Below are positions 3 through 10,761 of a DNA stretch of 10,762 bases, piece by piece. Below the pieces are notes generated by a model. It did not search any database, was not told where the DNA came from, and saw only the letters and a program-made list of their open reading frames with translations. The position numbers and the translations under genes are program-made. This DNA is from a virus (Duplodnaviria > Heunggongvirae > Uroviricota > Caudoviricetes): IMG/VR virus record IMGVR_UViG_3300024344_000001. One strand, 5' to 3'. Every line of letters begins with the position of its first letter. The first letter of the stretch is position 1.

Positions 3-260
3 AGTTTGTTTACATGGACAGGTAGGACTATGTGTTACTCCAAACCTCTCTGACCATTGGAAGATTATGTATTCATGGTTATCATGAGTAACAGTATCAA
101 TGTAATACTGATTCCCAACAGTAGTCTCTACCTTTGGTAAGGTAGATGTCCTATTTGCCTGCAAGAAAACAGGAACAAGTAAAACGGTTAGAATAAAGAC
201 AATAGCAACCATTACTAATATCTCAGTAATGGTTATACCACGGCGTTTTGGTGTTGTCAT
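3..260 (-). CDS. Prepilin-like (type IV pilin/pseudopilin N-terminal motif) membrane protein, 3'-truncated by window edge
   Basis: Not in ORF track. ATG at 260 overlaps the upstream TGA (ATGA); 86 open codons to the edge: MTTPKRRG|ITITEILVMVAIVFILTVLLVPVFLQANRTSTLPKVETTVGNQYYIDTVTHDNHEYIIFQWSERFGVTHSPTCPCKQT. Basic leader, Gly(-1), Glu(+5), about 20 hydrophobic residues. Confidence 0.75.
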   Translation of the reverse strand, partial: MTTPKRRGITITEILVMVAIVFILTVLLVPVFLQANRTSTLPKVETTVGNQYYIDTVTHDNHEYIIFQWSERFGVTHSPTCPCKQT

Positions 261-784
261 TTCACTCTCACGATCTTACATGCGTCTCGCCATAAGTTAG
301 AACAAAGGGGAGACCTTACCTTTGGACCCATGTATAGGAATGAGAATCCGGCATCAGAAGACTTACTGGTTAAGTCACCAACAACACACAAACCATCCTC
401 ACACACTTCTTGTACTATGTACTTACCACGACTTGTGGTATATTGATTCTCACCGTCACTATTTCTGTAGTACGGACCTGACCCTCCGACGACGCGGATA
501 CGGGTGCCTTTGGTAAGACTCTCCCAGTCCGTAATCTGGTTAGGCAGGACTCTATCAGTATGGGTCTTGATCTTAAACTTGTAATCGCAGCTAGGGCACT
601 CACGAGTACGTACACCTAAAATAGATTCACAGCCGGGGCATGTCTTCTTACCACGACCGTGATTACTTCTCTTAGGCTGAACTACACGCTTCTCAAACTT
701 GTGGTGACAATGAGGACAGCGATGGGAACGCGGACCAGTTGTACCACTACATTCAGGGCATGTTTTTTGTCCACGTTTACCCAT
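257..784 (-). CDS. Tandem double zinc-ribbon protein (175 aa)
   Basis: Likely start MGKRGQK at 784, just after the upstream TGA. Two repeats, GQKTCPECSGTTGPRSHRCPHCHHKF and GKKTCPGCESILGVRTRECPSCDYKF, give four CxxC motifs. Confidence 0.8.
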   Translation of the reverse strand: MGKRGQKTCPECSGTTGPRSHRCPHCHHKFEKRVVQPKRSNHGRGKKTCPGCESILGVRTRECPSCDYKFKIKTHTDRVLPNQITDWESLTKGTRIRVVGGSGPYYRNSDGENQYTTSRGKYIVQEVCEDGLCVVGDLTSKSSDAGFSFLYMGPKVRSPLCSNLWRDACKIVRVK

Positions 785-1142: not shown

Positions 1143-1711
1143 GATTCTCTCTTGTTGATAGGTTCGTTCCTGGCGAGTTTCGCCTGCATCACAGTATCAT
1201 ATCCGGCTTCGATGCTTTTGTCAAGCTGATTCTCCAAGAATCCATCGATTCCGCGAAGAACTCCCGCTAACTTCACACTTTCGTCTAAGTAAGTATGAAG
1301 AAAATCAGGATCGCCGTCCATTTCAGACAGGTTATCAATTCTATCTGCCAGCTTAATCAGCTTACCAGCCGCACTAATCCTGGAGATACGGTTGAACTCA
1401 GCAGCCTTACGTTCCGCCCTATTCATATTAGGGTACTCGGACTTTTCGTACTGGTTCGTTACCTCCAAAACATATTCTGCAACCGGTACACCAAACGAAT
1501 CCACAAGATCCGGGTATGTAACATCAGTATCCTCAATCGTATCATGTAGAACTCCCGCAATAATAAGGTCATCAAAGTCTGGGTATCTATCCATAATACG
1601 GAAAGCTACCCTTACTGGATGGGCAATGTAAGGAACGCCGGAATACTTCCTAAGCTGATCCTTATGATGTAGGTTAGCGAACGTGATCGCCCTTAGCATT
1701 GTATCGTTCAT
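1139..1711 (-). CDS. HD-domain RelA/SpoT-type hydrolase (small alarmone hydrolase, Mesh1-like)
   Basis: Motifs AITFANLHHKDQLRK, PYIAHP, LHDTIEDT (HDxxED) and KLADRIDN match RSH hydrolase domains; there is no synthetase domain. Confidence 0.9.
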   Translation of the reverse strand: MNDTMLRAITFANLHHKDQLRKYSGVPYIAHPVRVAFRIMDRYPDFDDLIIAGVLHDTIEDTDVTYPDLVDSFGVPVAEYVLEVTNQYEKSEYPNMNRAERKAAEFNRISRISAAGKLIKLADRIDNLSEMDGDPDFLHTYLDESVKLAGVLRGIDGFLENQLDKSIEAGYDTVMQAKLARNEPINKRES

Positions 1712-2682: not shown

Positions 2683-3330
2683 TTAGCACCCACACCTATA
2701 ACCAGAGTTATCTCTATGTTTAGTAGAGAAGTAACGACCAGTAAACAGAGAAATATCTGTCCAGAATTCTCTGAGATCTCTCTCAAAGTCAACATCGCCG
2801 TATATCTCAGTACCGAAAAACAAAGTCTCTCCACTCACGGCCTGGTCAATAAGTCTACTTGGAGTAGCATAATACTCTTCAGCAAACTTACGTATACGTT
2901 CCAGTGCCGCTCTCTGAGTCTCAGTCAGACTATCAGCGGTCCAACCTCCATCAATGTCAACCTGAGAGCAACAACTCCACGCATTAGGATCAATGATATC
3001 ATCAATGTCCTTTACGGGCTTAGTTACTGGTTCCGGCTCACAAATATGATCCAGGTCTGGATGCTGCCACTGATGACGCATACCTGTAACTGTGTTAGGA
3101 AACAGGAATACCCAGAACTTCTCACCAACGTATACTGGACAGTCTAAGAATGGATCTACGATACCAACGTTATCAGAATATCCATCACTAGCAGTGCCAT
3201 CTTCATTGATGCGAACAGCAGTACCTGGCTCCATATTATCATCAGCAATACAAGGGAATACAGCTACATGAATAGCATCACGCATTACCTCTATGTCATC
3301 AGGAATCTTTTGTCCTAGTTTCGGTTCCAT
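2683..3330 (-). CDS. Hypothetical protein, paralog B (RDAIHVAV/GIVDPFL family)
   Basis: 215 aa; shares RDAIHVAV, VGIVDPFL, KFWxFLFPxTVTGMRHxWxHP, AWxCC and terminal CxC with 3340..4023. Confidence 0.85.
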   Translation of the reverse strand: MEPKLGQKIPDDIEVMRDAIHVAVFPCIADDNMEPGTAVRINEDGTASDGYSDNVGIVDPFLDCPVYVGEKFWVFLFPNTVTGMRHQWQHPDLDHICEPEPVTKPVKDIDDIIDPNAWSCCSQVDIDGGWTADSLTETQRAALERIRKFAEEYYATPSRLIDQAVSGETLFFGTEIYGDVDFERDLREFWTDISLFTGRYFSTKHRDNSGYRCGC

Positions 3331-3339
3331 AACAATCTC

Positions 3340-4023
3340 CTAACAGGAACAACTCCAACCCATACCTAAACGGTGGTCGTCGTCGTATTTTTCACCCGTA
3401 TACGTTTCCAGGTGCTTCCAGAATAGATTATGATCTTCACCTAAGTCACCACTATTATGTAGGTCGTGACCGTTAGCAACGATATATCTATCCCAACTTT
3501 CTCGATTATCACCAGACTTTGTAGCCTGTGCGATAAGTTCAGTCAAATCAAAGTTCCATCGGTCGCAGAAGTCCTGTAGCCAACGATAACTTTCTTCAGC
3601 TTCATCCTGCTGCCAATGATCTTCATCATAAACCTCACCAGCACAACACGCCCATGCTTCTTGGTACTCATACTCTCTGTCATTGAAAGCAGGAATACTA
3701 TCAGTTCTTTCCTTGAAAGCAGGGTGCATCCAGTGATGACGCATACCAGTCACAGTACCTGGAAATAAAAAACCCCAGAACTTCTGACCCTTCTCTACTC
3801 TCCAGTAAGTTACTTCACTAGCATTTAGAAATGGGTCTACAATACCAACGGCGTTGCCATAATTGCCGTTATATGCTGTATACTGATCTGTACTACCTAG
3901 GCGGAATGCACTACCAATAGATAGATCCTCACCCGCAGTCATAGGTACAACAGCAACATGGATAGCGTCACGATTTACATCGTCGCCTTCCCCAATTAGG
4001 TGTCCAAGATTAGGTTCAGACAT
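3340..4023 (-). CDS. Hypothetical protein, paralog A (RDAIHVAV/GIVDPFL family)
   Basis: 227 aa; same motifs as the neighbouring paralog. Confidence 0.85.
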   Translation of the reverse strand: MSEPNLGHLIGEGDDVNRDAIHVAVVPMTAGEDLSIGSAFRLGSTDQYTAYNGNYGNAVGIVDPFLNASEVTYWRVEKGQKFWGFLFPGTVTGMRHHWMHPAFKERTDSIPAFNDREYEYQEAWACCAGEVYDEDHWQQDEAEESYRWLQDFCDRWNFDLTELIAQATKSGDNRESWDRYIVANGHDLHNSGDLGEDHNLFWKHLETYTGEKYDDDHRLGMGWSCSC

Positions 4024-4269: not shown

Positions 4270-4842
4270 CTACCCCTTAGCGTAAGAATTCCATATTTCC
4301 AGATCCAACTCAGCAGGATCTCTACCCATGTCTCTTGAGAGACCTAAGAACTTCTGTTCCAATTCAACATAACGGCGACTTGAGCCAGGAGTCTGCTTAG
4401 GGGCATTTATACCCTTATACCTCAACCATTTCAGTATATGTACGTCTAACACAGCAATTTGTGCATTAGGACGTGAGTGCATGATAAAGAAACGGCTAGT
4501 CTTAAACCCAACGCCGTGTATTTGCTCTAATTGACTGATAGAACAGTGTTCTAAGTTAATTCCAGACCATGCCGCCGACAAGAAAGCCTTAGCACGCTGG
4601 TTGTAACACCCAAAACCCAACCACTTCAGTACAGTAGTCAGTTTCTTATTGTCCATCTGTCGTAGTCTATGGAATAGGGTAGGTCCATCATATTCGGACA
4701 CCAGCCACTCTTCAAACAACCACAACTGATTAGCAATAGTCTTACTGTTCTTACCGGCTACTGATATACTAAACAGGAGAAACCTTTGTAGGTCGTCTGT
4801 AGAGCGTTCAAAATCGGTAATCTTACTGGGATCAATCTTCAC
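4270..4842 (-). CDS. Helix-hairpin-helix DNA glycosylase/AP lyase-like protein (Ogg-type)
   Basis: HhH motif LEQIHGVGFKTSRFF with Lys, then IAVLDVHILKWL with Asp, as in archaeal/bacterial Ogg enzymes; GTG start with AAGGA SD right after a promoter. Confidence 0.8.
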   Translation of the reverse strand: MKIDPSKITDFERSTDDLQRFLLFSISVAGKNSKTIANQLWLFEEWLVSEYDGPTLFHRLRQMDNKKLTTVLKWLGFGCYNQRAKAFLSAAWSGINLEHCSISQLEQIHGVGFKTSRFFIMHSRPNAQIAVLDVHILKWLRYKGINAPKQTPGSSRRYVELEQKFLGLSRDMGRDPAELDLEIWNSYAKG

Positions 4843-9903: not shown

Positions 9904-10761
9904 TTACGCAGACAGTGCCAATCCTTCAGCCTTGAGAACCTCGGTTGAGCTACCCGCCTTGAGGATTCTATCGAATGACGTGTTGAACGCCGTTCGACGT
10001 GTTGACTGATGCTGAGTCCAACCCTGAACAGCGTTGTACGCTTCCCAGGCAGACACAACACCGACACCGTTTGACAAGTCTCGACCTGTCTTCTGTCGTT
10101 CGTTCCACAGTCGGTCAAAGATTTCTTGAGTACGATTGCGGTGAATCGTAACCTCTCGAACACTCTCACCAGCAGCAGCACGACCGAGATTCTCAGCCGA
10201 AGGCTGACCATAAACTTCATTCAAGAAGTCGGCCATATTAACTTGTCGTCTTTCCATCTGATCGATAACATCAGTCAGAGTAGACCAACCATTTTTCAAC
10301 AGGTTGAACTGTTCGACCAGTGTATCCATCTGGACACGCAGACCGGATGTGTGACGAATGGAAACAGCAAGGCCGGAAACCTTACGCATCCATGACAGGT
10401 TCAGGCAGGCATCGCGGTAGTAACCCAAGATAGCCTTGAAACCCCTGCCATCGAAACCACCGGACACCATGAACCGTGGCCAGATATTATCCGCACCATT
10501 GTAGATGGATCGGCGGAAGCCGTCAGTCGGAGCGATGGACACATAGTGACCATTGCGGAAGTGACACTGCAAATTGACTTCGCAGTCAAACGCATGTTGT
10601 GCGGCTTCACACAAGGCGGTCACGTCATCAGTCGTATGCGGCACATACCGCGAACTGATCGACTTGACACCTTCCAGGTAGCCGGTGTCAGAACGGAACA
10701 AACCGTACTGATCGGTCGGCATGTTGTCGGGACCGAACAGCGGAAACTTATCGACTGCGAA
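9904..10761 (-). CDS. DUF932/DUF945-like phage/plasmid protein, 5'-truncated by window edge
   Basis: The frame stays open upstream of ATG 10722 (FAVDKFPLFGPDNMPTDQYGLFRSD). The pattern YGLFRSD, SRYVPH, G-x-DG, YRDACLNL, SIRHT, SAWEAYNAVQGW is typical of the family (recalled). Confidence 0.7.
   Translation of the reverse strand, partial: FAVDKFPLFGPDNMPTDQYGLFRSDTGYLEGVKSISSRYVPHTTDDVTALCEAAQHAFDCEVNLQCHFRNGHYVSIAPTDGFRRSIYNGADNIWPRFMVSGGFDGRGFKAILGYYRDACLNLSWMRKVSGLAVSIRHTSGLRVQMDTLVEQFNLLKNGWSTLTDVIDQMERRQVNMADFLNEVYGQPSAENLGRAAAGESVREVTIHRNRTQEIFDRLWNERQKTGRDLSNGVGVVSAWEAYNAVQGWTQHQSTRRTAFNTSFDRILKAGSSTEVLKAEGLALSA

Follow-up and report, generated by a model that had tools for sequence, protein, structure and literature searches.

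A phage protein that joins a predicted prepilin-type signal to a putative zinc-binding head

P0001 is a 97-residue phage protein composed of a class III (prepilin) signal, a variable linker, and a three-stranded head of about 35 residues. Its gene lies at the edge of the window, the 10,762-nucleotide stretch of viral DNA analysed here. The initial annotation read the protein as a decoy pilin. That proposal holds in part: the signal is real, selected, and of class III, but the most conserved part of the protein is a His/Cys head that is often found on other anchors. Rather than a pure decoy, P0001 is more likely a surface-acting protein that reaches its place by the host pilin pathway. We give roughly even chances to the reading in which the head is the working part, displayed via the host prepilin pathway and, by analogy with published phage pilins, most likely serving superinfection exclusion.

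The open reading frame is on the minus strand, starts with an ATG at 260-258, is read toward base 1, and is still open at the window edge. Residues 1-86 are encoded within the window (3..260, minus strand), and the full gene occupies L001:10001-10294. P0001 is annotated as a gene in the ENA (138-kb contig), JGI, and Logan assemblies; the window is 99.94% identical to the ENA contig, and the P0001 DNA is identical in the five other loci compared. The minus strand contains every motif first reported for this region (KRRG/ITITE, a hydrophobic run, VPVFLQANR, and HSPTCPC). The domain was described as ending in HSPTCPC; the motif is there, but the protein continues for 14 residues after the last Cys. 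The idea that P0001 is a pilin gene broken by a split or frameshift was rejected, as its reading frame is intact and the next gene, which encodes a SEC-C-motif protein (L001:10296-10625), is unrelated.

P0001 shares an ATGA (257..260, minus strand) with the zinc-ribbon gene upstream, whose stop codon runs into its start codon, which points to translational coupling. The nearest upstream sigma-70-like promoter, identified by consensus match only (11/12; 1196..1224, minus strand), lies two genes upstream and would drive 1142-786, 784-257, and P0001. The four best promoters of this type in the window (11-12/12; 7082-7054, 9287-9260, 4900-4873, and 1224-1196, minus strand) all point in the coding direction. 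A perfect 10-bp inverted repeat with an 8-nt loop (207..234, minus strand) covers P0001 codons +2 to +10, which are exactly the codons that depart from the pilin consensus. For the surrounding region (180-290, minus strand) the mRNA is predicted to fold with a z of about -3.8, the second lowest among 44 gene starts, and this modelled fold, which includes the repeat, may hide the P0001 start site. A brake on translation and a scar left by template switching are two possible explanations of the repeat. The hairpin was not seen in the 17 relatives compared and is therefore not a family feature.

The signal begins with a basic prepilin leader (residues 1-8; 237..260, minus strand), recognised from the sequence and the PilFind rule, in which Gly8 at -1 is encoded by 239-237. 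Prepilin peptidase is predicted to cut after this residue, between 237 and 236. The leader is followed by a pilin-type alpha1 helix (residues 9-37; 150..236, minus strand), a single membrane span with Glu13 at +5 (224-222) and Pro30 at +22 (173-171). The AlphaFold2 (AF2) model of P0001 has a helix at residues 11-37 with pLDDT 83-98. Class III signals consist of a hydrophilic leader ending in Gly and a hydrophobic stretch of about 21 residues that includes Glu5 (PMC4471445). With 23 uncharged residues after Glu13, P0001 is selected by the PilFind rule, which asks for the motif within 35 aa together with a run of 14 uncharged residues (PMC3244431). This rule passed 35 of the 4439 ORFs in the loci examined, comprising 18 family members, three other true prepilins, and 14 chance hits (a chance rate of about 0.3%). 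Profile searches with PF07963 and TIGR02532, the check initially suggested, gave no match for P0001; among 35 aligned relatives they matched 19 and 16, respectively. P0001 also has weak PilA/GspG matches (E 2e-4 to 1e-2), limited to residues 3-48. An eight-residue leader identical to that of P0001 is found in a bacterial GspG (L171:737-1162) within a T2SS cluster of GspF, G, H, I, J order, possibly by chance, since this gene was found by pattern search.

As a control for circularity, only positions +6 to +28 were scored against 116 bacterial prepilins. Among the 28 relatives that score above zero, Glu is found at +5 in all 28 and Gly, Ala, or Ser at -1 in 26. Positions -1 and +5 are conserved in these members, but 26 of 66 relatives have no class III signal at all and carry the head on lipoprotein or plain anchors, which partly refutes the decoy proposal on the terms set in the initial annotation. 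P0001 itself scores -2.2 bits and is more drifted than most relatives; despite the low score, Gly, Glu, and Pro still fall at -1, +5, and +22 in its best register. Pro at +22 is present in 31 of the 40 class III members. The deviant residues noted earlier in P0001 are confirmed but are not unique to it (Ile at +1 in three of the 40 members, Thr at +4 in four). Ratios of pN/pS, taken from six pairs of close relatives, are 0.32 for the signal, 0.60 for the linker, and 0.19 for the head, the lowest of the three; by this measure purifying selection acts on both signal and head and is strongest on the head. Glu5 is needed for filament assembly and dispensable for processing by the promiscuous prepilin peptidases (PMC4471445), so its retention suggests contact with an assembly machine. 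PilD, PilB/GspE, and PilC/GspF are absent from five related phage records, two of which are at least 99% complete, and no assembly ATPase, platform protein, or peptidase was recognised in 35 kb of the P0001 contig. The related phages would therefore have to use host machinery.

Beyond the helix, residues 38-51 form an unstructured linker (108..149, minus strand; pLDDT about 62) that varies from about 7 to 28 residues in relatives. The uncatalogued head (residues 52-85; 6..107, minus strand) is modelled with confidence by AF2 as a three-stranded meander (strands 52-59, 62-69, and 72-77) with a short helix (82-85). P0001 thus has no globular pilin head: its long helix stops at residue 37, and a low-confidence linker leads to a separate three-stranded unit (whole-protein pTM 0.39). 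Relatives were collected by phmmer (34 full-length proteins) and by C-terminal patterns (38 IMG/VR loci); the non-redundant His-type members number 66. Four head residues are invariant or nearly so, namely His62 (77-75), His77 (32-30), Cys81 (20-18), and Cys83 (14-12), all minus strand and all putative zinc ligands. The resulting tetrad, H-x14-H-x3-C-x-C in P0001, is intact in 63 of the 66 members, with 10-22 residues between the two His.

The head appears, from these comparisons, to be a phage-specific domain. It belongs to no Pfam family (Kre9_KNH and OSTbeta were rejected as below the cut-off and found in one member only), and a scan of bacterial species genomes detected none. In 401 Planctomycetota genomes there were two weak matches without the His/Cys end, one of them resembling GroES. 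Foldseek found no match in the PDB at E<=0.001, VIA-align of the structure gave a best Z of 3.9, and a PDB sequence search with P0001 returned nothing; these negatives do not prove a new fold. A literature search found no paper on a head of this type or on phage mimics of the DUF1559 type.

The pattern HKGNCK[FY]C retrieved a large sister family of phage lipoproteins, and a scan for it located at least 119 loci (L049-L167). This family is very abundant in uncultured phages, has a C-x(10-23)-H-x3-C-x2-C head, and lacks a Pfam model. Profile-profile alignment matches it to the P0001 head with 95% probability (E 3e-8). Among the matches listed, all 93 scorable sister members have Cys at the column of His62, which was outside the search pattern; the combined head pattern is H/C-x(10-22)-H-x3-C-x(1-2)-C. 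The exchange of His for Cys together with an odd number of Cys points to a zinc site, as the three Cys of the sister family fit a metal site better than disulfides. The head is accordingly read, from sequence conservation, as probably a zinc-binding mini-domain, and the modelled strand topology makes a putative tetrahedral zinc site plausible. A Cys81-Cys83 disulfide in the periplasm, instead of the putative zinc, is possible. Structure prediction of a homodimer with zinc scored 0.02, which is evidence neither way.

The head is carried on three kinds of anchor. The 66 His-type members, manually curated, comprise 40 with a class III signal, 15 with a lipoprotein signal, and 11 with a plain anchor. 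In the Cys-type set a lipobox is present in 84 of 95 proteins and a class III signal in one (L117), among the matches listed. Head comparison puts one plain-anchor and two lipoprotein members at the top of the matches to P0001, the highest identity being 50% (to the lipoprotein P0036). The head tree intermixes anchor types, with 15 changes for class III, at least two of them forced by well-supported branches; built on 34 columns, it is weak, and class III monophyly is borderline rejected (p-AU 0.050). To judge from sequence, the three anchors are interchangeable, and all would place the head outside the cytoplasmic membrane. Some signals are eroded: L039 is without E+5, and P0010 and P0007 have N or T at -1. 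A duplicated gene block in one phage contains paralogous class III copies (L005:6001-6291 and L005:7547-7858) in which signal and tail are nearly identical and linker and head have diverged. Three related large phages encode a second, long prepilin-type protein of 287-402 aa (L046:1069-2277, L047:1190-2053, and L048:1204-2067), one of which has a weak DUF4886 match.

The source is, by strong inference from the roughly 35 kb of the 138-kb contig that was read, an early-type region of a large phage. This region holds densely packed small genes on the same strand, together with five tRNAs (three Glu, Asn, Ile) and a gene for a secreted, trypsin-like protein that has a collagen-like repeat (tRNAs and protein at L169:12624-15386, L168:5595-5670, and L169:16234-17445); it contains neither a recognisable structural gene nor a lysis gene. 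Neighbouring genes match PHROG 11912, 11575, 990, and 17693 strongly (E 1e-22 to 1e-42). Relatives of one neighbour occur in phiM12, CcrPW, and Erwinia jumbo phages, and tandem PHROG 11912 paralogues with Cys-rich ends (2683-3330 and 3340-4023, minus strand) have relatives in phiM12, CcrPW, and jumbo phages. Other minus-strand genes of the window encode an HD_4 hydrolase (RelA/SpoT-type HD domain; 1139-1711), an Ogg-HhH glycosylase-like protein (4270-4842), and a DUF932 protein (9904-10722). Downstream of P0001 are genes for an RF-1-domain (ArfB-like) protein (L001:12109-12480), two metallophosphoesterases (L001:13260-14703), and a GmrSD_N-HNH fusion (L001:19016-20294). In the ESM Atlas the clusters nearest to P0001 by features are viral, as are four of the five nearest by structure. 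IMG/VR and the cultured phages yielded no close relative of P0001, its 90% cluster has a single member, and no gene neighbours are common to the P0001 phage and its relatives. An integrase is present in one of five related phage records, and the family may therefore occur in both lytic and temperate phages.

The signal is, on sequence grounds, derived from a PVC/Armatimonadota type of prepilin. The suggestion of a PVC-type host suits the family, whose N-terminal consensus is close to that of Planctomycetota prepilins and of which 20 of the 40 class III members score best to this phylum (positions +20 to +31), but P0001 itself is best matched to the Armatimonadota type (12.5 versus 3.7 bits, with reference samples of five in a pattern-biased panel). 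Only one neighbouring gene, a DUF5658-like gene 2.5 kb downstream of P0001, points, weakly, to Planctomycetota: weak homologs are found in 11 of 151 Planctomycetota genomes, in none of 101 Verrucomicrobiota genomes, and in one of 101 in an Abditibacteriaceae-centred (Armatimonadota-group) panel. In our judgement a Planctomycetota host is slightly favoured, plausible but unproven.

Phage pilin mimics have recently been published as a defence strategy, and the design of P0001 differs from theirs. P-FimU, the pilin of Pseudomonas aeruginosa F10-like prophages, retains the complete pilin fold (2.7 A over 130 positions); its gene belongs to the tail cluster, and it can complement a fimU mutant. Truncated phage P-PilA proteins of about 60 aa have also been described (PMC12952977). 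By analogy, P0001 would work most like these proteins: all are phage-encoded, have a type IV pilin N-terminus, and come without their own pilus machinery, and for all of them host processing and assembly are presumed to serve phage-versus-phage defence. In P0001, by contrast, a floppy linker leads to a His/Cys head that is not pilin-like, the gene sits among small early-type genes, and the head also occurs on non-pilin anchors. The likeness of P0001 to pilins ends at residue 48 rather than extending over the whole length, and without a pilin fold it is not a member of the P-FimU type. P0001 shares with type IV pilins and T2SS pseudopilins the basic leader to Gly, Glu+5, about 21 hydrophobic residues, Pro+22, and a single span, but it falls below PF07963 and TIGR02532, lacks the alpha1C/beta-sheet head, and has no fold match. 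The first 33 residues of its family follow the consensus of the planctomycete DUF1559/SBP_bac_10 prepilin-type proteins (PF07596) and of their equivalents in Armatimonadota, including a PAVQAAR-like stretch, whereas P0001 has no DUF1559 domain and no H-X9-DG tail and is 97 rather than about 300 aa long; P0001 gave no PF07596 match, and PF07596 is absent from the families listed for the 35 aligned members. Small phage lipoproteins (weak matches to PHROG 19356 and 8801 and to BFVD A0A6J5N866) have the same head by profile-profile comparison and are the top viral fold matches; they differ in the lipoprotein anchor, in Cys as first ligand, and in C-x2-C in place of C-x-C.

What the signal and the head contribute can be weighed on this evidence. 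A pure decoy, in which entry into or blockage of the host T4P/T2SS would be the work of the alpha1 helix by itself and the head would serve only as a steric cap or be carried along, would account for the conservation of G-1, E+5, and P+22 under a signal pN/pS of 0.32 and for a family consensus that mirrors Planctomycetota prepilins, and truncated PilA-like phage proteins of about 60 aa have been proposed to act in this way (PMC12952977). It sits poorly with a head whose conservation exceeds that of the signal and in which a specific tetrad is maintained, and it leaves no pilin role for the heads that lack a pilin signal in 26 of 66 relatives and in 94 of the 95 sister proteins listed; we regard it as a serious but unlikely alternative. 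The opposite view, that the class III signal is simply a convenient membrane anchor borrowed from the abundant prepilin-type proteins of the host, involves no pilus engagement and gives the head an unrelated periplasmic job such as metal handling or binding of outer-membrane or cell-wall proteins. The exchange of three anchor types, the eroded signals of some members, and the drifted signal of P0001 with no PF07963 match are consistent with this view. Glu at +5, however, is kept in 28 of 28 independently chosen members while neighbouring positions drift, which counts against a plain anchor because such an anchor does not need it, and we consider this account doubtful.

Two further proposals are far less probable. 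P0001 might saturate or inhibit prepilin peptidase as a competitive substrate, as the initial annotation also suggested, given a cleavable-looking site with non-canonical +1, +3, and +4 residues and the promiscuity of these peptidases (PMC4471445); this would leave both the head and a conserved E+5 that processing can dispense with unexplained, and most class III relatives have a canonical, easily cut site, making the idea very improbable. A virion or lysis (spanin-like) component is suggested by the many relatives that are small lipoproteins, and is the most improbable of all, given that the 35 kb read contain no recognisable structural or lysis gene and that neighbours are not conserved among relatives.

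The reading of the head as the working part is supported by its conservation (the tetrad in 63 of 66 members, pN/pS 0.19) together with the anchor swaps. In this mechanism, the P0001 gene would be transcribed early from a host-type promoter, SRP/Sec would insert the protein, the host prepilin peptidase would cleave it behind Gly8, and its head would fold around one zinc ion. Retention of Glu+5 and Pro+22 would allow P0001 to join the pilins of the host and to dock at the type IV filament machine or co-assemble with it, and this delivery would bring the head to its target. The head would bind a host envelope protein; phage receptors, entry channels, and components of the pilus or T2SS are candidates. 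By analogy, the benefit would most likely be superinfection exclusion during infection. A broader and rather improbable generalisation is that the head is a portable zinc mini-domain, widespread and phage-only, that acts as an envelope effector and whose export path is chosen to suit the host; in Planctomycetota-type hosts it would take the form of a "modular pilin", a non-pilin head on a DUF1559-type alpha1 helix that is incorporated in type IV filaments.

The P0001 family appears to borrow from pilins the export and assembly helix alone, and to use it to carry a phage-specific head that is elsewhere a lipoprotein. This head is very common in uncultured phages (at least 119 sister loci), yet it is without a Pfam model or a solved structure. 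P0001 is small enough for direct testing, and the natural anchor variants separate "anchor" from "effector". The family would bear on the little-known attachment and competition of phages of Planctomycetota and related phyla. If the modular-pilin reading is true, P0001 would be a probe for what the hundreds of planctomycete prepilin-type proteins assemble into, and it would suggest that planctomycete phages use type IV filaments as receptors.
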